Part shown: positions 3,403-52,962 of the stretch, one piece after another
How positions within the stretch are numbered: the stretch's first letter is position 1
Layout: every line of letters starts with the position of its first letter
Source of the DNA: Octopus vulgaris
Taxonomy: Eukaryota
Reading direction: 5' to 3'
Assembly: GCA_951406725.2 (NCBI GenBank)
Contig: OX597828.1
Location: forward strand, 76,756,001 to 76,820,000
DNA length: 64,000 bases
The notes under the pieces: model-generated
The model's input: the letters and a program-made list of their open reading frames with translations, nothing else
Databases searched by the model: none
Told to the model about the DNA's origin: nothing
Made by a program: the position numbers and the translations under genes

Positions 3403-3633
3403 TCTTTACTGCCCACAAGGGGCTAAACATAGAAGGGACGAACAAGGACAGACAAAGGGATTAAGTCGATTACATCGACCCCAGTGCGTAACTGGTACTT
3501 AATTTATCGACCCCGAAAGGATGAAAGGCAAAGTCGACCTCGGCGGACTTTGAACCCAGAACACTTAACGGCAGACGAAATACGGCTAAGCATTTCGCCC
3601 GGCGTGCTAACGTTTCTGCCAGCTCGCCGCCCT
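3400..3633 (-). mobile_element. tRNA-derived SINE family B (Meta-domain-like octopus SINE)
   Basis: Reverse complement GGCGGCGAGCTGGCAGAAACGTTAGCACG...GTCGACTTTGCCTTTCATCCTTTCGGGGTCGATAAATTAAGTACCAG...GCCCCTTGTGGGCAGTAAAGAAA; multiple copies in the window. Confidence 0.9.
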
Positions 3634-6980: not shown

Positions 6981-7363
6981 TACGAGGGGGCGGGGGATGA
7001 AAAGTTTCTGACTTTGAGTAAAATAAAATACTGGAGGATCAGTTTATTACGATTTATTATGATGCTGCGATGGCCGAGTAGTTAAGGCGTTGGACTCGAA
7101 ATCCAATGTGCGATGCCCTCACAGGTTCGAATCCTGTTCGCAGCGTTAATTATTTTAAATGGTGGTGCCCCAGCATGGCCACGGCTCGTGAGCTGAAACT
7201 AGATGAAATAAAAAGAAAACCATATTCCCCTCTCAGATTCATACATTTATTGCAGCTGTCCCTCAGTTTTTCTAAGCCCCGTATAAGAACTCGGAATGTC
7301 GGTCCTCCAGCCAGGCCTTCCGCGATACCCTTAAAACCAGAAATTTTGCAGCACCCCCACGTA
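6981..7363. mobile_element. Mariner-type MITE interrupted by a tRNA-Ser/SINE-tail insertion
   Basis: Imperfect TIRs TACGAGGGGG...TGAAAAGTTTCTGACTTTGAG and CTTAAAACCAGAAATTTTGCAGCACCCCCACGTA, TA ends. Confidence 0.7.
7064..7145 (+). tRNA. tRNA-Ser(CGA), probably a retroposed or pseudogene copy
   Basis: Acceptor GCTGCGA/TCGCAGC, anticodon arm TTGGA-CT-CGA-AA-TCCAA, T arm ACAGG-TTCGAAT-CCTGT, long variable arm. D-loop GG changed to AG, one variable-arm mismatch, followed by a SINE-type tail. Confidence 0.85.
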
Positions 7364-9437: not shown

Positions 9438-10077
9438 AAGTGAGACTTGGACGCTATACACACGCCAAGAGCGTCGCCTAAACATCTTTCCCCTGCGCTG
9501 CCTCTGAAAAATCCTCCGCATCAAATGGCAGAATCATATCCCCAACAAAGATGTCCTCAAGCAAGCAGGAATACCAAGCATGTTTGCACTTCTCACACAA
9601 AGATGTATGAGATGGCTTGGGCATGTTAGCCGTATGAAAGATGGCAGAATCCCCAAGGACATACTCTACGGAGAGCTTGCTAGGAGTACTAGGTCTGTGG
9701 GTAGACCGCTCTTACGTTACAAGGATGTTTGCAAAAGGGACATGAAGGCCTGCAACATCAATATTAGCAATTGGGAAGCAGTTGCCAGCCACCGTGGAGA
9801 TTGTCGACGTACCGTAAAAGAGGAAATACAAAGGAGTGACAGAGAGAGAGAGGAGAAATGGAAAGAAAGGAAGAGACGTAAACAAGAGACTATGGCATTA
9901 CAACCAGCCAGGAACAGTCTTCGCTACATTTGCGGTACCTGCCAGAGGGAGTGTTTGTCCAGGATAGGACTACACTGCCACAGCAGGAAATGTATCAGGA
10001 CATGAAATGTAAAAGCCGGACTAGACTACTTTATGCGCAACTGCATTGTCTCCCGAGACAAAAAGGATGCCAACAAC
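9433..10077 (+). mobile_element. 5'-truncated RTE LINE (RT C-terminus, C2H2 finger and 3' UTR)
   Basis: YGSETWT...RWLGHVSRMKDGRIPKDILYGEL...YICGTCQRECLSRIGLHCH; closely matches 48208-48850; ends GTCTCCCGAGACAAAAAGGATGCCAA; inserted in (TA)n. Confidence 0.93.
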
Positions 10078-17920: not shown

Positions 17921-17976
<56 letters not shown>

Positions 17977-17977
<1 letters not shown>

Positions 17978-18306
17978 TACGGAGATGTACTTGCATAGCA
18001 GGTGACCTGATCTGAGATCGTGTGCTGCAACGAAAACAATTGCAGCGTGGAAGGTGTTTATAAGCCATTTAAGAAACACACAAAAGCCGTTAGATTAACT
18101 TCAACATTTAAATTTAATTTGCCAAAATATTTTCGTCGCTTTGAGACCTCGACCTGTTCACTGACATCACGGAATTTTGTCAGTGAACAGGTCACGGTTT
18201 CAAAGCTACGAAAGTATTTTGACGCAAATTAAATTTAAATGTTGAAGTGAATCTAACGGTTTTTGTGTTATTTTAAATGGCTTATAAACACCATCCACGT
18301 TGCAAT
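17977..18306. mobile_element. Inverted pair of Penelope-like pLTRs, each with a G3:C8-variant hammerhead
   Basis: Arms 17977-18166 (-) and 18178-18306 (+) are reverse complements around an 11-bp spacer; same family at 36188-36232 plus 37916-38073. Confidence 0.8.
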
Positions 18307-18496
18307 AATAATAATAATAATAATTTATTCTATAGACACAAGGCTTGAAATTTAGGAGGGAACCAGTTAATTATATTGACCCCAGTGCGTAACTGGTACT
18401 TATATTTTGAATAAAATTGAATGACAAAGTCAACCTCGGCGGAACTTGAACTCAGCACATAAAGATAGACGAAATACCCGGCGTGCTAACCTTTCT

Positions 18497-18721
18497 TATT
18501 TCTTTATTGCTCACAAGGGGTTAAACGTAGAGTGGACAAACAAAGATAGACAAAGGGATTAAGTCGATTACATCGACCCCAGTGCGCAACTGGTACTTAC
18601 TTTATCGACTCCGAAAGGATGAAAGACCAAGTCGACCTCGGCGGAATTTGAACTCAAAACGTAACGGCAGACGAAATACGGCTACGCATTTCGCCCGGTG
18701 TTTCTCCCAGCTCGCCGCCTT
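18497..18721 (-). mobile_element. SINE family B copy adjoining an older family B copy (about 18325-18495)
   Basis: Matches 3400-3633. Confidence 0.88.
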
Positions 18722-21454
18722 CTCATAAAAAGTTATATCATTTCTGCCAGTCCTAAAACGCTGTTTCTAAATTACCAACTTAAACACTATGTTATATTTT
18801 GGCAAACCCTACATTTTAATTTATACCTCCAAAACATAAGAATAAAAACAAGAAAACTGTATTTTCACCCTATATAATTTAAATTAATATTGAGATAAGA
18901 AATTTTTTAAAAATGATGCAAAACCCAAAACAAATCTTTTAAAATCATTACAGATTTAACAAAATATAAAGACAAATAATGAAATAAATGCCAAAACTAG
19001 CTGAACGAGAGAAAACAAAGAAAACGATTGAAGGCGAACAAAAAAAATGTAAGCCTATGGTCACGTGATATTTTCCACGCTTTTGTTCTTTTTCTTTCTC
19101 TTTTTGTGTGTGTCCCGCAGTGAAATATTGGATCTCTATAATAATTTCTTACTTTAGCGAACATAAAAATTGGAAAATAGGAATGACTGAAAAAAAAAAA
19201 AAGAATTATATTTTTAAATATGAGAAAACGGTAAACATTCTGTTAGGTTGTTATTTATAAAATGATGGCTTCAAGTTCTTTAACGGAAGTAACAAAAAAG
19301 AAAAAGGAACAGAAAATAGAAAAAAAAGGGGGAAGGGGATTTTCTGAATATCTCGTTAAAAGCTAATTTATTTAAATTTTCGTTAAGTTAAATTCTGTGT
19401 ACGTTTTCGGTAGAGATAGGCAAAAAAAAGAAAAAGAGAAGAAAAGAAAGGTAGCGAGGGAAGATGAGAAAGAAGAAAATGGTGAAGTACACACAGAACG
19501 GAGCAGATATATATATAGAGAGAGAGATAGCCACAGAGTCAGAAACAGGCACATTGGCATTGACGTACACACATACACACACACGTTTATAAAAAAAGTA
19601 CATACATATATATATATAAAGAGAGAGATATACAGAGAGAGAAAGAGACAGAGAGAGAGAGAACGCGAGTGACAGACAGATACAGTAAAAGAGAAACAAA
19701 GTGTGAGAGATTTCTTGTGGTTATTCTATTTTTACGACCGTAATGATTCGAAATGTAATCTTTTTATTAATAATGATAATCATTTCTACTATAGGCACAC
19801 GGCTTGAAATTTGAGGGAAGGGGTAGGTCATTTACTGAACTGGTACTTACTTTATCGACCCCGAAAGGATGAAAAGCAATGTCGACTCCGCTAGCATTTG
19901 AACTCAAACCCAGATGACAGACGAAATGGCGTTTTGCATTTCGCCCGGTGCGCTAACGATTCTGCCAACTCACCGTTTTAATAATAATATTGACTATCAT
20001 TATAGATATACCCCACCCCAGGAGAACATATTATGCCCAACATTAATATGACAAGGTATGACTTTTCATAGCAGCCATTTGCAATTTTGAACAAACGATC
20101 GAATTAGGTGAATTCTTTCAGACAGCTTCGAAATGATTTTTAACTACAATTTACCTATAAAAAAAAGTTTATTTTCAATCCAATGGATTACCAAATGGTG
20201 AAGATCGTTGTAAACGGAAATAAAATATGTTTTTATTCATCGACTGAAAATAACTGCTTTACAATGACTTTTCCTTACATGGATTTTATACACTGAAACA
20301 TGAAAGCAACTCATAGGTATTGTGTGCGAATAGGTGAACATAATAATGAAATATACATTTTCTCGTATTTAGCAACCAATCAAATCTCGGTAATTAATGA
20401 TGCTTCGATTTGTATGAATATTTTTGCTTTTATTTTGTTACGCTAATACATAACTTCAAAACGTTATTAATAGATGACGGGAAATACAGATGTAATGATT
20501 AAAGATATTTCGACTTCGAATACAATATATTCTAATTCACGTATTGAGTAATTATCTCACCAGTTCTACATGTAAACGTTCTCTATTCCATATATTTATA
20601 TACATATCCACATGCACATAATATATATATAATAGGGGAAATAGGATATAGGGGAGGAAATTAAGAGTTAAGGAGGGAATCAAAATTCAACTTAGAAAGG
20701 ATAACTAAATAATTACAGATTCATTAGCAGCAAGTGTTCGATAATAAATTGGTTTGCTTTAATAGCAATAAAACCTTTCCCATTAATTCTAATTAATTTT
20801 CGCAAAAATGTTATATTTGTATACATTCTTCAAGAGAAATGTTAAAATTATGTTTCTAATTATAATAATAGTAACGATTTGGATAATGATATCAGCGTAA
20901 TAATGTTTATGAGGCAAAAATAAAATCTTCGTGATTAAGTAAATTGATAATAAGAGAAACTATACAAAAATTGATATTTTATAAAACAAATTCCGTGAAT
21001 AGAATTCTCTTCATATGTATGACAATGAAAGCCATCATATACATCTCTGTTCGTGCTTCTTTACACTAAAATATATCGACAAGCACAAAAGAACGAACTC
21101 GCTCTAAATACAAAAATATATATCAACATATACATATATGTGTGTGTGTATACGTGTATATGAGTGTACTTTCTTATATTCATTCATTTGCTTCAATCAT
21201 TTGACTGCGGCCATGCTGGAGCACCGCCTGTAGTCGAGCAAATCAACACCAGGACTTATTCTTTGTAAAGCTACTACTTATTTTATCGGTTCTCTTTTAT
21301 CTGATTTTAAACACATACACACACATACGCGCACACGCACGCACACACACACACACGCACATACATATATATATATATATTTTACTACTTTCAGCTCGAG
21401 AGCTGCGCCACATGTACCATGTTTTTACATATGTAAACACTCACACACAGACAA

Positions 21455-31574: not shown

Positions 31575-32660
31575 TTATATTTCAGGTGCTATATGTGATT
31601 GCTTAATCCTGCTATGTACAAAAAAAACATTGGAACTGTCTGAAGTTCAAAGAGGCCATATTTTGGATCAATCTGAAGGTGTACATAGCGTAAAATCGCA
31701 GAAAACCTTGGGATCCCGCTTACTACAGTTAATAGGATAATAATGTAAATCACCAGAAGGAGCCCACGTTACCACACACAAGTTGACCAGAGCCCTCTGA
31801 GAGGATCTTTCTCTTCGTTAATAGAAGTGTACAGGATAATCCACGTTTCAAGGTCTCTGACATAGCAGAAAAGTTAGTATCAATCCAAGAACAGCTGTCA
31901 GGTATCTCCACAAACTTGGTTACTATGGCAGAGCAGCAAGAAAGAAGCCACTTCTTTGACCAACCAATATCAAGCAGAGAAAAGATTGGGCTTGTGAGAT
32001 GGTGGAGAGGCCACTAGCATTTTGGGACACTGTCATATTCTCTGATGAGTCCAGATTTGCTGAATTTGATGTGAAAAGATTGCAGCCAACAATGAAACAT
32101 TGTAGATATTCTGAGATGATCTGGGGAGCATTTTCGAGCAATTGTCACTCAGAGCTGGTGAAGTGTGAAGGAAATACAAACTCGGATATATATATATATA
32201 TATATATGTCCATATTGCGGAAAGAACTCCTCCTTCCAAATTTCTCAAGTGGTGAAATGGTTAAAGAAGACTCTTCATTTATAGAAGATGGGGCTCCTTG
32301 TCACACGGCTAAAATGACCCAAGATTTGGTGGAAAGGATTGGCATTATAAAGCTTTCACGGCCAAGTCAGTCACCAGATATGAACCCTATTGAACACCTC
32401 AGGGACATAATGGACAGGACAATTCATAAAAAGAACAAGAAAGCATCTTCAAAACAAGATCTTTTGAGATTACTAAATAAGACTTGGCAAGAAAATCCTG
32501 AAGAGAATATTCGTCATCTGATCAGTAAAATGCCCAATAGGGTCCTTGCATTGAAAAAATGTAAAGGACAGGTCTAATGAACACTAAATATTCACATTAT
32601 AAAAATTAATAAATAATTTGTATGCATAATTTTAGATTTAAATAATTTTTATTATAAGAG
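31575..32660 (+). pseudogene. Tc1-like DD34E transposase pseudogene (largest open piece 31999-32577)
   Basis: VIFSDESRF, then D(34)E in FIEDGAPCH...SPDMNPIEH; upstream YYGRAARKKPLL*; internal deletion and (TA)n expansion. Confidence 0.9.
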
Positions 32661-36163: not shown

Positions 36164-36232
36164 CAAAAATCTATGCTGCACGGATCTTTGTCAGTGAACA
36201 GGTCGCGGATTTTAGCGACGAAAATATTTTGA

Positions 36233-37915
36233 GGGCGTCGGTTGTTATTTTTGAACGCTCGTGAAATTGTGTAAAACAGAACAAAAAGTAAGTTAGAAAA
36301 TTGTTGTTGTTGAATTTTGTTGTACGTTTGTTGATACGGTTTCGTGTTATACTGTTTCTGCTCTGGCGGCCGTTGTCTTTCTGTGTGAGACAGACAAGAG
36401 GATATGGACGACCCCTCTCTGATGGAAGAGTCGGAGGAGGAATGGTTGTTCGAGACCTTGTCGGAGGCACCGACTCTGAGGACGAGGTGACTGGCGCTGT
36501 GAATAATATTAAAACCGGGAAGACGTACGCTGAAGCTGCAAAAAAGAAGACGACGGAGGAAAAGGAGAAAAACATAGAAAAATTACCAGGTTTTCAAGCT
36601 TACATAACTAAAGCAGGTGGGGAGGTAAAACTACTTCCGCCAGAGAAACGAGAAGAATGGTTTATGAAGAGGATTATAAAATACCGGACATATGGAAAAG
36701 ATAACAGGAAAGTAGAAATAATAAAAATGGAAGATATTGAGGAGGCGCTGAGAAGAGAGAAGGAAGAAATCCCATTCATGACGAGAGGAAACGAGTTCGG
36801 AACTATAAGAGTGCAGTTCGAAAGCAAAAATATAGCAAGGAAAATGGCAACAAAGACAATAAAAACTGAAAAAGTAATATTGTTACCCTCCTACATGAAC
36901 CAAAGAATAAATAGAATAAGAGTTGAAGGGATACCCCCCCACATAGAGGGTGAATGGGTTGTCGCGGCGATTATAAAAGATGTGGAAGAAGAGACGGACA
37001 TTTTACAAGCGACCGTAAAAAATGAAGGTTTACGTGGCAAAACGCTAGAAATGAGCGTTCAAGCAGAGGAGGGTGCACTGGAGAAGATGGCGGACAGCAT
37101 AATTTTAGGGAATATAGTAATGAGAGTGTGGGTGGAGGTCAGAGCACCAAGGTGCTATAAGTGTGGCCTGAGGGGCCACATAAGAGCCTACTGCCCTCCC
37201 CCACAAAAGGAAACAGTGATCCAGGAAGAGGAGGAGACGGAGCCGGAAAAAGTTGAGGAGGAAGAATCTGAGGAGGAGAAGGAGGCCCAAACTGAGTGGG
37301 AAGACGTAAGGAAAAAAAGAAAAAGAAGGAAAGTGAACTTTATCGAACCCCAATCCACCCCAACACCACCCGCACCCTCTGAGCCCCATCCTTCCCCTGC
37401 AAGCTATGATCCCACCCACTCCCCGCCTACAAGAAAACCTAAAAACGCAGACATACAGAGTAAACAAGAGCCCAAGTCCCATTTTTTATGTTTTGTAAAA
37501 AAAAAGGAAGACAATGAGAACTCAACAAGAGTCTTTGGTAAAGAAGCATGGTATGAAGAAGAAGATGGGAGTTATTTGGTGGTGGAAGGGGAAGTAATGG
37601 ACACAAGGAAGATGTGTGTAAATGAGGGCGTAAAAGCGATTGAGATGGAATTTTCGAATGAGAAGATAAAAGAGTATGAAAGGATATTTGAGAAAGTGAT
37701 AAGAAAAGAGGGACTTTTGGTTGGAGATGATAGGTGACGAAGGGTTTGTGAAGGACAGGTAAGTGGTGCTGGCGGATGGGGCCGTCAGCATCGCTTTCAT
37801 ATTATCACTTATCATTCTAAAAATTCATTCTCCATACTATTAATTATAATGTTCTATGTCCCCAATGTTTTGTGGTGTCCCCTCTGTGTCGCCCCTAGTG
37901 GGTAATAAAGAAAGA
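36233..37915 (+). mobile_element. ORF1-only (HAL1-like) non-LTR retroelement of L1/Tx1 type, 13-bp TSD
   Basis: TSD GAAAATATTTTGA at 36220-36232 and 37916-37928; single ORF; ~180-bp 3' UTR ending TGTCCCCTCTGTGTCGCCCCTAGTGGGTAATAAAGAAAGA. Confidence 0.85.
36442..37737 (+). CDS. Gag-like LINE ORF1 protein (~431 aa): RRM-like region, CCHC zinc knuckle, acidic/basic tract, Pro-rich linker, C-terminal domain
   Basis: First in-frame ATG at 36442; CYKCGLRGHIRAYC = CX2CX4HX4C; KTYAEAAKK and IRVEGIPPHI motifs typical of L1/Tx1 ORF1; KKRKRRK NLS-like. Confidence 0.85.
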   Translation: MVVRDLVGGTDSEDEVTGAVNNIKTGKTYAEAAKKKTTEEKEKNIEKLPGFQAYITKAGGEVKLLPPEKREEWFMKRIIKYRTYGKDNRKVEIIKMEDIEEALRREKEEIPFMTRGNEFGTIRVQFESKNIARKMATKTIKTEKVILLPSYMNQRINRIRVEGIPPHIEGEWVVAAIIKDVEEETDILQATVKNEGLRGKTLEMSVQAEEGALEKMADSIILGNIVMRVWVEVRAPRCYKCGLRGHIRAYCPPPQKETVIQEEEETEPEKVEEEESEEEKEAQTEWEDVRKKRKRRKVNFIEPQSTPTPPAPSEPHPSPASYDPTHSPPTRKPKNADIQSKQEPKSHFLCFVKKKEDNENSTRVFGKEAWYEEEDGSYLVVEGEVMDTRKMCVNEGVKAIEMEFSNEKIKEYERIFEKVIRKEGLLVGDDR

Positions 37916-40699
37916 GAAAATATTTTGACAAATTATACTTAAATGTTGAAGTGAATCGAACAGCTTTTGTGTGTTTCTTAAATGGCTTACAAACACCTTC
38001 CACGCTGCAATTGTTTTCGTTTCAGCACGCGATCTCAGATCAAATCACTTGCTATGCGAGTACATCTCCGTAACATATATATATATATATATATCAAACG
38101 ACGAGTGTGCATGTGTGAAATAGTGTGACCTAATCGATAATGTGTTAGCCACATGTCGTAATTCGATACATAGACGAGTCGATGCTTTTCGTCTTTAAGC
38201 CCCCCCCCCCCAAATAACTCATTTCACTCCGAACCTGAACATTTAACCGAGAATGAAAAATGGCGGAGCAGTTCTGCCGTTATAGCAGTTCATGTTTGAT
38301 AGATCCAGAAAATTTGTCAATGAGTGACTACACAGACCTCAAAAATAACTAGTACAATCTACCAGTCGCTACTTGGTTGCGAGAGATTGATTGTTTATAA
38401 AATGATGTCCATTGGGTGAACTCGATTGCTTGATACATACTTTCTGTATCGCGCAAGATAAGATTGATATGAGCGAGGTTTGAACGCGGAATGATGTACG
38501 TTCAAAACTGAATATTTTACGCCGTGTTGTGTAAACACAATAACTTTCAGCCATTTCAAGTGATCTCGAGATTACTCCAACTAAGAGAAATATTAGCACT
38601 GGCTTCACACAAAATGGAAACTTAATTCCCAGATAGAGGTTTGTGTCGGGCTCAATTATGTTGAATTTTCACTAATGATAACAGATTTATATTCATCCTG
38701 CTGAGATTTATCCGATAGATTTTAGAGTGTCATATTGTACAACACGGCTTGTCATGTCAGTTCCCTCTTTATGGCCCTATAAGTACTTATCTGTAAGTTA
38801 TGTACCAGTAAAATATTGGGGAAAATTAACTAATCAAGACTGATTAAGTATTCAACTAATTATTGTTTCGGCCTTAAATTATATGGCATGGTGCAATCTC
38901 TTTCGGTGAATTGGTTAGCGTGTTCGTTTAGACACAGGTTTTGGCTAGAAAGACATCAGGCTGGATTTAGTTCATGCGTTCGATCTCATTTGCTGTAAAC
39001 CCCTGAGGGACTCGACGTTTATCATCTTCAGTTGAGTGCGTCACTTTCTCCAAGTCGAAATAAAATATCCATTTATTTCTATGGAAATTTGAATCTATTT
39101 CAGATTTAATCTATTTAAAGGATTCGAATTGATTTCATTGCAGAATAGAATCATCAATTATTTTGAAAATGGATAAAATCAGATCTATTTGTGGAATTGA
39201 TTAAGTTACAAGACTGGACAATAAAGAGAGTTTGTTGCGTGTAAGTCGTAAGAATGTGTCCCGCTTCCAATTGCGCCATCAATGTGTCCACGAAGAAACG
39301 TGTATAAGTATGACCACGAGAAAATTTTGATGAAATATAAAATGGAATTGATTCGGCTTTTATGTTAGATTTAATTTATGTCTTTATTTCCTGTATCAAC
39401 CTTAGGCATCTGATAGCTGTCAGCTTGGATATTCATTCCAATGTTTCTGGAAATTTAACTGAATCAGAGAGAATTCTTACTCAGATATTGTCACTAGTGT
39501 GTAGCAAAATTAACAGTTTTAACTTAAATCTGGTGACATTATAGATAAAGTTTGCAGACTTGCTATTATTATTAAAAGTATATTTGGTTGCCAATTACTG
39601 TGCTATGCTTTTACTGTTGTTACTTCTATCTACTTTTAATTCCACTTCCATTTCAGATTCCAGTTTCCAGTTCTGTTACTCTGCACACAACTTTTAACAT
39701 ATTTTATTACCGTTGTGAGAAGTTTTGTCTATCAGAACGAGGCAGCGCCAAAACACTGCCAGTGAGATTTTAATCGAATCACAGAATCATTAGCCTAAAT
39801 ATAACACAGTCCCATACTCGACAAAGAGGTACACAACGTTTTATTCTAATGGATTCTCGGCGGTTCATTGAGTAGACTTCAGTCTTTACACGCACATATC
39901 CGCCGGCATATCTCTATCTCTTTCTACCCATATCTGCATATCTACTTACATGTATGCATATATATATCTGCTTGCGTATATGTACGCAAGGTGCCGACCG
40001 GAGTAAAGCTAGATGAGGTTAACTCATCACGACCAAGAGTCATCATTCTCTGTATGCACCCATTGCAGTAGCAGCAGATCAATGCAGATATCAGAGTTGC
40101 TTCTGCTCCATATCTCTGTGCCCTTTTACCTGAGTAAAATATGTGAGAATCTTAAAGTTGGAGCTGCAGTAGTGCATCGAGAGAGATGCAGTTATGATCG
40201 GCTGTTTCGCAAGCATTATTGTCTCTGTAGCTGAAATTAGCTGGAAAGAAACTGAAAGATTTTCACATGTGTTTATATTTTGTGGCATTGGATCTATGAC
40301 TATGCTCTGTATATGGCCTGCTGTAGTGATGTAGAAATTATTGTTTTGTGGCATTTGTAGTTCGTATATATTTATTGCAGAGAAAATCGAGGCTCATGCA
40401 AAGGCTAACCAAATACATGATTAATAATAGTTTAAAAAACTATTTTGGTTGTTTCTTTGTTTGGTCACTTATGTTTTCTGAATATTTTCTTCATTTGTGC
40501 TCTCTATATTCTTTGTACACAGAAATCTTAAAAAAGTTTTGTAAGTAATTTCAAATAATTCTTTCGTGTGTTTCGGGTGTATTATATGTTACGGGTTACT
40601 GAATATCATTCTTGGTTCTATGGAATATTGTTTCATGTAGCTAGAGGGAAGGAACCGTGTGTGCTTTGCTAAATGCATATGTCATTGGTATATAAGCAG

Positions 40700-45570: not shown

Positions 45571-48500
45571 CTTGAAAAGCGGCCTGCAACCTCTGCACCA
45601 AGCAAACAGCTAAAAGACAAGAAACCACCCGTCCTGCGGTTGGCAAGCTGGAATGTGAGGACCATGTGCCCTGGAATATCTGATGATCTACTCAGGGTTG
45701 AAGACACAAGGAAAACGGCCATCATTGACCGTGAACTAAAGAGACTTAACGTAGACATTGCTGGGCTACAGGAGACAAGACTTCCCTCAAACAGCAAACT
45801 CAAAGAACAGTATTTCACCTTCTTTTGGCAGGGAAGCGATACAGAAGAACCTCGTCAGCATGGCGTTGGCTTTGCAGTGAGAAACTCATTACTCTCCTCA
45901 ATATAACCACCATCAGGAGGCACTGAGCGTATCCTCTCACTGCGCCTCTCGACTTCTTCTGGCACAGTACATCTACTCATCATCTATTCTCCCACTCTCT
46001 ACAGCTCAGAGGAGACCAAGGACCAGTTCTACAAAGATCTCAACTGTGTCATTAAAAATATGCCAACAATTGAAAACATCTACCTTCTAGGGGATTTTAA
46101 CGCTGGCGTGGGATCTGACCATGATTCGTGGCCCATTTGTGTTGGACACTTTGGTATTGGCAACATGAATGACAATGGTCAGAGACTACTTGAATTTTGC
46201 ACATACCATAACCTGTGCATCACAAACACATTCTTTGCCCACAAGCCATCCCACAAGGCATCTTGGATACATCCAAGATCTCACCACTGGCATCAGCTGG
46301 ATCTCATCATTATACGGAGATCATTTCTGAATTCTGTTCAACTGACCCGCAGTTACCACAGCGCGGATTGTGACACAGATCACTCACTAATTAGAAGTAG
46401 GGTGAGGATTCTGCCTAAAAAAGTCCATCGCTCCAAGAAAGTGGGCCAGAACCTCGAACCCTACACTGCGAAAATGTTTTGCTGCTTCTATCAAGGTTGC
46501 CCTCAGTAGCTGCCGAACCTCCTCTGCTGAAAGTAGGTGGAATTATATCAGGGAAGCTTTGTATACCACATCAATAGATACTTTCGGCATGAGAGAAAGG
46601 CAAAACCCAGATTGGTTCAATGCTGGGCTCTCAGAGCTGGAGCCAGTTATCGAAGCAAAGCGTGCAGCTCTGATGCAACACAAGAGTGATTCTTCTACAA
46701 AGTCACTCGAAGAACTCAGAAAGGCAAGAAATAAAACCCAACTGACAGCCAGACGCTGTGCAAATAGGTATTGGCAGGAAATCTGTCAGAGCATCCAGTC
46801 AGCTGCTGACAGGGGCGACACCCGTGGGATGTATGCCGGTTTGAAGAAGGCCCTCGGTCAATCCGCAACCAAGTCAGCCCCTCTGAAATCAACTACTGGA
46901 GATCTCATCAGGGATCAAAGCAAGCAAATGGATAGATGGGTGGAGCACTACCAGGATCTCTACTCACGGGAGACTACAGTAGCTGAGGCTGCAATCGAGA
47001 GTGTCAAGATCTGGCCAGTGAAGTGCGAACTTGACAATCCGCCATCTATAGCAGAGCTCACCAGGGCTATTGACTCCCTAGCAAGTAACAAGGCTCCGGG
47101 AAAAGGCGGCATCCCCTCAGAGATCATCAAAGCCGGCAAAAACACCATCTTGCTTCAGCACCTTCATGAGCTTCTGTGTCAGTGCTGGGAAGAGGGTACA
47201 GTCCCTCAGGATATGCGAGATGCTAACATCATTACGCTTTACAAAAACAAAGGTGACCGTGGTGATTGTAACAATTACCGTGGTATATCTCTTCTAAGCA
47301 CTGTTAGAAAGACCTTTGCTCGCGTTATCCTGACTAGGCTACAACTACTTGTTTCTCGTATCTATCCGGAATCGCAGTGTGGCTTTAGAAGAAGCAGATC
47401 AACTATTGACGTGATATTCTCCATACGCCAACTTCAGGAGAAGTCCAGAGAGCAGAAAATGCCATTATATATGGCCTTCATTGATCTGACAAAGGCCTTT
47501 GACTCGGTAAGTAGAAAAGGCCTCTTCATCCTGCTCTAAAAAATCGGATGTCCACCAAAGCTGCTGAGGATCATCAAGTCTTTCCATTATGATATGCAAG
47601 GCACCATACAGCACAATGGTTCAACATCAGCAGCCTTCCAAATAAAAAACGGGGTAAAGCAAGGTTGTGTCCTCGCTCCTACATTATTTGGCATCTTCTT
47701 CTCGCTCTTACTCTCACATGCCTTTCAGACATCAGATGATGGAGTGTTTCTGCACATTAGAAGTGACAGGAAATTGCTCAATCTCTCGCGCCTGCGTGCC
47801 AAGACCAAAATCAGAAGCGTCGTGATCAAGGAGATGCTATTTGCTGATGATGCCGCTCTGGTATCATACACAGAAGAAGCCCTCCAAAGGCTCATTAACT
47901 GTTTTGAGCAAGCATGTAACGACTTTGGCTTAGCCATCAGCCTTAAAAAGACCAACATCATGGGTCAGGCTACATCGGACATCCCAAACATACATATTGG
48001 AGACCACAGATTACAGGAGGTGGAGAAGTTTACCTATCTTGGCTCTACCATCACCTACAACCTATCCCTTGACGCTGAGCTCAATATACGCATTGGCAAG
48101 GCAGCTGTTGCGATGGCACAACTCTCCAAACGGGCATGGGACAACAATAAGCTGACCAAGACCACGAAAATGAAGATCTACCAGGCATGTGTACTTAGCA
48201 CTCTACTGTATGGAAGTGAGACTTGGACGCCATACACACGCCAAGAGCGTCGCCTAAACATCTTTCACCTACGCTGCCTCCGGAAAAATCCTCCGCATCA
48301 AATGGCAGAATCATGTCCCCAACAAAGATGTCCTCAAGCAAGCAGGAATACCAAGCTTGTTTGCACTCCTCACACAAAGACGTATGAGATGGCTTGGGCA
48401 TGTTAGCCGTATGAAAGATGGCAGAATCCCCAAGAACATACTCTACGGAGAGCTTGCTAGGGGTACTAGGTCTGTGGGAAGACCGTTCTTACGTTACAAG

Positions 48501-52380: not shown

Positions 52381-52962
<582 letters not shown>

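Follow-up and report, generated by a model that had tools for sequence, protein, structure and literature searches.

Does a hammerhead motif whose core reads GTGAACA, with G3 and C8 where the ribozyme consensus (CUGANGA) has C3 and G8, represent a few damaged copies or the natural state of a repeat family, and could such a motif still cut itself? The question is raised by a stretch of 64,000 nt of the Octopus vulgaris genome (contig OX597828.1, positions 76,756,001 to 76,820,000; hereafter the window), for which a preliminary description had listed three copies with this core. All three are indeed present, at 18161-18155 on the minus strand and at 18183-18189 and 36194-36200 on the plus strand; they do not count as three independent cases, because a single inverted-repeat insertion accounts for two of them, the motifs at 18120-18166 and 18178-18224 being its arms. 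Here, I show that the swapped G3:C8 core is real and is the fixed state of its family. The feature is best described as a minimal hammerhead of the Penelope type, of putative activity, in which the 3:8 pair is inverted and fixed so across an animal repeat family of high copy number.

Copy A (17978..18166, minus strand), truncated on its 5' side at stem I, is a solo pseudo-LTR of a Penelope-like element with a tail of about 60 nt (17978..18037, minus strand), the latter bounded by the two points at which the 3' ends of the family are fixed. Its best 40 genomic matches are 94-100% identical to it, and it shares 91% identity with copies that are linked to an open reading frame (ORF). The hammerhead motif, as read from the sequence, spans 18120..18166 (minus strand): stem I pairs 18166-18162 with 18124-18120, the core has G3 at 18161, C8 at 18156, A9 at 18155 and an extra G at 18154, and GAAA (18134-18131) runs into the palindromic helix III (18131-18126) and U17 (18125). 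By hammerhead numbering, the cut would be expected between 18125 and 18124. The motif sits in the pseudo-LTR, the predicted cut site being 56 nt upstream of the start codon of the element's ORF, the first 30 codons of which (17979..18068, minus strand) belong to copy A and continue in frame into the Penelope-like ORF of locus L128. Copy B (18167..18306, plus strand), the inverted partner of A, has no tail and carries the motif 18178..18224 (core 18183-18189). Together they form the arms of a single inverted repeat (18039-18306) embedded in an (AAT)n microsatellite, which occupies 17921..17977 (plus strand) at the insertion site and resumes after copy B from about 18303. Beside the pair lies another short dispersed repeat, with copies at 18357-18700 and 19838-19950.

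Copy C is split. Its 5' part (36173..36232, plus strand) contains the core at 36194-36200 and an intact stem II, the 3' arm of stem I being cut off by an unrelated insert of 1,683 bp (36233..37915, plus strand) just past the predicted cut site; its 3' part (37916..38073, plus strand) holds the duplicated target, the missing stem I arm, the remaining pseudo-LTR and the tail, and shares 96% identity with the L128 copy that is linked to the ORF. A 13-bp duplication flanks the insert (36220-36232 and 37916-37928), and the segment 36161-36171 resembles what would be left of an inverted copy. Copy C was considered as the head of a LINE and rejected as such, the ORF belonging to a later insert with target duplication. 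That insert encodes a 481-codon ORF1/gag-like frame (36292-37737, plus strand) with a weak zinc knuckle match (PF00098, E 0.096, below cut-off). The same 1.7-kb ORF1/gag-like element, devoid of reverse transcriptase (RT), occupies the identical hammerhead position in three of 24 distinct places (window 36233-37915, L183 and L192/L197); since flanks and loop II subfamilies differ among the three, a target preference is suggested. Further copies are located elsewhere, several of them in tandem. The window copies, then, are solo terminal repeats from two insertion events, B and C being damaged.

Their helices are less well kept than first described. The family does read TGTCA/TGACA in stem I, as had been stated, and an exact match is absent from the window, where the minus copy has TGGCA, the 18178 copy TGACG and the 36189 copy a split 3' arm. 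Stem II comprises 5 bp and is intact only in the 36189 copy among those of the window: the damage reported for the 18178 copy is confirmed, with two mismatches, and the minus copy has one mismatch as well. The helix III palindrome is retained in copy A, while the 18178 copy has one A-to-G change, and motif B is probably misfolded, its hammerhead stems being lost in the predicted fold. The UUU cleavage triplet had been called unusual, which does not hold: U17 is found in 24 of the 56 Penelope-type motifs of Fig. S3 in PMC4209133, and the Crassostrea gigas motif there is UUU.

The window also includes a broken LINE with AP endonuclease and RT domains (45571-48406, plus strand; a related 3' fragment at 9508-10005), a DDE_3 transposase fragment (31960-32577, plus strand), a tRNA gene with a CGA anticodon and a long variable arm (7064-7145, plus strand, 64.4 bits), and a near-perfect palindrome of 138 nt (52442-52579), to which a plant miRNA model matches, though only below threshold.

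Within the window alone, the statistics of the swapped core are weak: a loose pattern of core plus GAAA gives three matches with 0.96 expected, a number reached in 5 of 100 shuffles, and a 16-mer allowing three mismatches, whose three matches are exact, is equalled by 2 of 100 shuffles. The matter is settled by genome-wide counts. The genome searched, of 2.8 Gb in 227 contigs, is matched at 100% over 70 residues by a protein named for Octopus vulgaris. Searching it with 20 letters that include the swapped core yields 5,777 exact matches, against none for the reversed control and none for the canonical core within identical flanks, which confirms GTGAACA as the consensus state that had been proposed for checking. 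When positions 3 and 8 are left free, 5,345 matches are obtained; among the first 100, which all lie on contig C1, there are 93 G:C, seven differing at one position and no C:G. Along the same line, contigs from four runs with four organism labels show no variant at a frequency of at least 5% at position 3 or 8, and the sites at which subfamilies commonly differ lie in loop II, in the distal part of stem I, at a stem I site that tolerates a wobble and at one stem II CpG, with none in the core boxes. A census of loci, biased in that many were chosen by their core, counts 66 of 74 with GTGAACA and none canonical. Apart from G3 and C8, which stand in place of C3 and G8, all other core bases are kept (U4, G5, A6 and A9; G12, A13 and A14; A15.1-U16.1; H17), as is G10.1-C11.1; the ORF-linked copy has a 7-bp stem I and a 5-bp stem II. 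One nucleotide, a G, is inserted between A9 and G10.1, a feature that the preliminary description had overlooked together with the Penelope-like pseudo-LTR context.

The identity of the carrier emerges from the sequences adjoining the repeat. Two of the first 60 loci had common sequence 5' of it, and a pattern drawn from this shared stretch has 517 genomic matches; four of 30 loci with the pattern agree over about 1.5 kb upstream, where an ORF encodes a YVDD RT motif and a GIY-YIG domain (PF01541, 23.1 bits versus a cut-off of 22.6). The RT is recognised from the YVDD motif and 128 homologues, the Pfam match being that to GIY-YIG alone. A single ORF with RT and C-terminal GIY-YIG is present in L092, L126 (1,025 aa open, with an inverted copy upstream) and L130, and in L128 the pseudo-LTR leads without a break into the ORF, with a second, tandem copy about 4.95 kb further downstream. 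Fifteen of 30 loci have a partner copy on the opposite strand, a count preferred to the alternative of 32 of 57 loci with both orientations, which may include low-complexity matches. As to the 3' ends, 87 of 93 copies stop at either of two points 61 nt apart (31 at end 1, 56 at end 2, which is the farther one, and 6 elsewhere), thereby defining an optional tail within the ORF start; such a tail signature is known for Penelope-like elements (PMC11167929, PMC8557442). The joined ORF, the tail end points and the tandem and opposite-strand partners together identify the repeat as the pseudo-LTR and tail of an EN+ Penelope-like element, which by its motifs (CX3CXXC linker, microsatellite targets) appears Neptune-like. 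Of 81 5' ends, 44 lie at -2 to +1 of an acceptor-like AG, some 20 nt before the core, and not at the cut site. Directly 5' of the point where most solo copies start there is a branch-point and acceptor-like sequence (L128:8298-8322; 517 genomic copies), neither a donor nor a spliced read having been found, and it is plausible that the AG marks an intron end. An apparent tandem at C2:171.24 Mb (L091) was discarded as a 3.45-kb local duplication with no ORF, and a search of viral contigs matched 15 stretches, none of them related.

Whether the swap is compensatory can be judged from relatives, namely a sister family of the same genome (58% identity), metagenome loci (8 of 14, those having downstream sequence) and a second Penelope-like family in L093. 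A descriptor leaving positions 3 and 8 unconstrained was applied to the region 3' of each ORF in 11 elements, with 40 shuffles for the swapped-core family and 100 for each of the others. In seven of the 11, the best match in this untranslated region was equalled by none or one of the shuffles; L141 gave a weak match, reached by 7 of 100 shuffles, and the remaining three (L138, L142 and the second L093 family) had no motif above shuffles. The last-named family (L093:927-3700) does contain, outside the descriptor, a hammerhead-like stretch near 3512-3540, with U3 and G8, a 2-bp stem II and a palindromic helix III.

Among the eight motifs, the 3:8 pair is C:G in five, U:A in two (L136 and L137) and G:C in one, and never unpaired. 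Stem II covaries too, four of its five pairs changing on both sides, and sliding the partners lowers pairing from 100% to 14-56%, a control biased towards the proposed pairing, for the structure was derived from the same sequences. The alignment omits L138, L142 and the second L093 family, and L141 and L137 are misaligned in stem II, so that only their 3:8 columns count. In the RT tree (11 rows, midpoint root, deeper forks open), the swapped family joins its C:G sister (100/100) and then the C:G element L135 (84/90), while the two U:A cases stand in separate parts. Because these nearest relatives are C:G, the G:C state is most simply derived from C:G, and the ancestor of the swapped family was presumably C3:G8; because C:G or U:A occupies the corresponding site in related elements, the motif is regarded as homologous to canonical hammerheads. 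That both letters have changed in three motifs, and one letter alone in none, favours selection on the 3:8 pair, in a small sample of eight related sequences with only three changed pairs, and the swap would accordingly appear compensatory. The earlier statement that C3G and G8C had changed together is thus borne out insofar as both bases are swapped and the pair is kept; their simultaneity can be surmised from the end states, which alone are visible.

Other parts of the core have moved in this clade. The sister family (L179:6294-6349, minus strand; ORF of 1,312 codons open) is a C3:G8 hammerhead with A9C fixed: out of 3,730 matches, 92 of the first 100 have C at position 9 together with C3, and only three of the first 100 have a fully canonical core. 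Among metagenome Penelope-like loci, L134:4963-5019 carries the core variant U15.1:A16.1, which elsewhere leaves low activity (PMC3088659), L136:2487-2540 combines U3:A8 with A9C, L137:3422-3469 has U3:A8, and the weak match L141:2348-2391 has G5A and G15.1:C16.1. Such changes (A9C, U15.1:A16.1, G5A) may indicate that selection on catalysis is relaxed in the clade.

What, then, could the octopus motif do? For the copy linked to the ORF, the predicted fold contains both stem I (7 bp) and stem II (5 bp), along with a G3-U17 wobble (p 0.67; p 0.74 in copy A), and a 3-17 pair is described as an inactive trap (PMC3884650). Helix III is a 6-nt palindrome, with a predicted duplex energy of only -0.2 kcal/mol; the double-hammerhead dimer is predicted at -28.8 kcal/mol, two trapped monomers at -30.8 and the best dimer at -32.7, which places the double-hammerhead fold 2-4 kcal/mol above the alternatives. 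According to the same source, where the data are not shown, G3:C8 is less active with C17 than with G17 (PMC3884650). U17 is common to five of the eight motifs, the nearest relatives included, and this background may have permitted the swap, because G3 would lock the cut site with C17 and gives only a wobble with U17. From published work, metazoan Penelope motifs cleave poorly even when canonical, and do so only in dimeric form or once helix III is extended (PMC4209133), and the hammerhead of an Anolis element cuts only with protein present (PMC11167929). In that element, a single C3G or G8C change abolishes cutting and the double mutant partly restores it (PMC11167929; also PMC8495972); the partial rescue by the engineered double swap, as cited in the preliminary description, is borne out by a Penelope-like hammerhead. 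Insertion in vitro still proceeds when the core is mutated (PMC11167929).

The reading towards which I lean, as a fairly probable one, is that of a minimal type I hammerhead, G3:C8 throughout the family, capable of weak self-cleavage, probably as a dimer only and aided by protein, for the processing of precursors. Two pseudo-LTR motifs would dimerize and the element's protein would assist a weak self-cleavage that would fall after U17 and process long precursor transcripts. The solo copies, thousands in number, comprise the entire motif and some 20 nt 5' of it; the RNA from which they were made was hence likely uncut, and their insertion probably does not require cleavage. A bolder version, which I entertain as a serious possibility rather short of probable, holds that an active natural G3:C8 hammerhead became fixed in a high-copy retrotransposon whose clade samples three 3:8 states as well as A9C and U15.1:A16.1, the protein or the inserted G compensating for the changes.

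Were the resemblance to a hammerhead fortuitous, the repeat might be a SINE or a tandem retrozyme with no homologue of the ribozyme in it. The Rfam search would agree with this, for no hammerhead match was returned at E up to 10 (in the window, none among the best 150 of 196); however, the canonical motif of the relative L135 is missed too, which makes the missing match uninformative. The repeat and a Penelope-like ORF are contiguous on the DNA, canonical motifs stand at the same place in its relatives and there is no tandem array of the repeat unit within the window, so that chance resemblance is very improbable and is largely refuted. Neutral drift of a dead motif, in which two independent substitutions happened to yield G and C before amplification, seems improbable, if somewhat less so. 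In its favour, about one third of double changes would yield a complementary pair by chance, the high copy number reflects one master lineage rather than selection, and the path from C:G to G:C requires two transversions via a non-pairing state; yet it would have to account for three double changes against zero single ones among eight motifs, and for common subfamily variants that avoid the core boxes.

The main rival to weak cleavage, in my view an unlikely one nonetheless, is a genuine descendant of hammerheads that has lost its cutting and whose fold is kept as a structural signal for the element's protein, for the adjacent acceptor-like splicing or for translation of the ORF. It would fit with the predicted G3-U17 wobble and weak helix III, with the core defects fixed in successful relatives, with copies that include the uncut motif and mostly begin at the AG site instead of the cut site, and with the dispensability of cutting for insertion in vitro (PMC11167929). 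It is harder to reconcile with the retention of nine catalysis-relevant unpaired or non-canonical core bases while the flanks have become unlike those of the sister family, and with the 3:8 pair being described for the active fold (PMC8495972). Weak, assisted self-cleavage is the reading carried forward here.

A key element of the active hammerhead fold is its C3:G8 pair, the inversion of which is fixed in the thousands of copies described here. Placed beside the C:G/A9C sister, the G3:C8 family offers a natural series in which to ask whether the hammerheads of Penelope-like elements must cut at all (PMC8557442, PMC11167929). As had been anticipated, descriptors built on CUGANGA miss the variant (PMC8557442 screened with ^cuganga), and fixed-core descriptors in general undercount the ribozymes of these elements; if G3:C8 is active, hammerheads reported absent from some Penelope-like clades could simply be hidden by such descriptors.

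No published report of a natural G3:C8 core was found, although Lunse, Weinberg and Breaker (2017), on Penelope hammerhead variants, could contain one; in the supplement of PMC8557442, which lists octopus Naiads, two of 30 GTGAACA places were inspected, neither being in a hammerhead context. Natural U3:A8 hammerheads have been published (PMC3088659; Schistosoma Cercyon elements, PMC4209133) and are likewise a natural 3:8 covariation; they keep a pyrimidine at 3 and a purine at 8 through two transitions, whereas the octopus G3:C8 inverts them through two transversions. A laboratory counterpart is the engineered C3G/G8C mutant of the Anolis Poseidon element (PAc, PMC11167929), with the same swap, the same element class and a partial rescue, and with a tail inside the ORF start as well; the swap of PAc was made in the laboratory, that of the octopus family is natural, the ORF starts at stem II in PAc versus 56 nt past the cut site in the octopus, and the tail measures about 60 nt versus the 30-40 described (PMC11167929).

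With the minimal hammerheads of Penelope-like elements at large (PMC4209133), the octopus motif shares the pseudo-LTR location, the extra nucleotide at 9/10.1, G10.1-C11.1, the palindromic helix III, the frequent U17, the prevalence of solo copies and the opposite-strand pairs; it differs in the inserted base, a G as opposed to H in the consensus given there, and in the 3:8 pair itself, G3:C8 occurring in none of the 56 motifs of Fig. S3. Neptune-clade elements (PMC8557442) share the C-terminal GIY-YIG, the CX3CXXC linker and the insertion into (TA)n/(AAT)n, a likeness that on the octopus side is one of motifs alone. Lastly, non-LTR retrozymes (bioRxiv 10.64898/2026.07.22.740005) are likewise short, non-coding hammerhead repeats derived from Penelope-like pseudo-LTRs; they are defined by head-to-tail hammerhead arrays, of which the window has none, while the octopus copies are dispersed or inverted and end at pseudo-LTR or tail boundaries.
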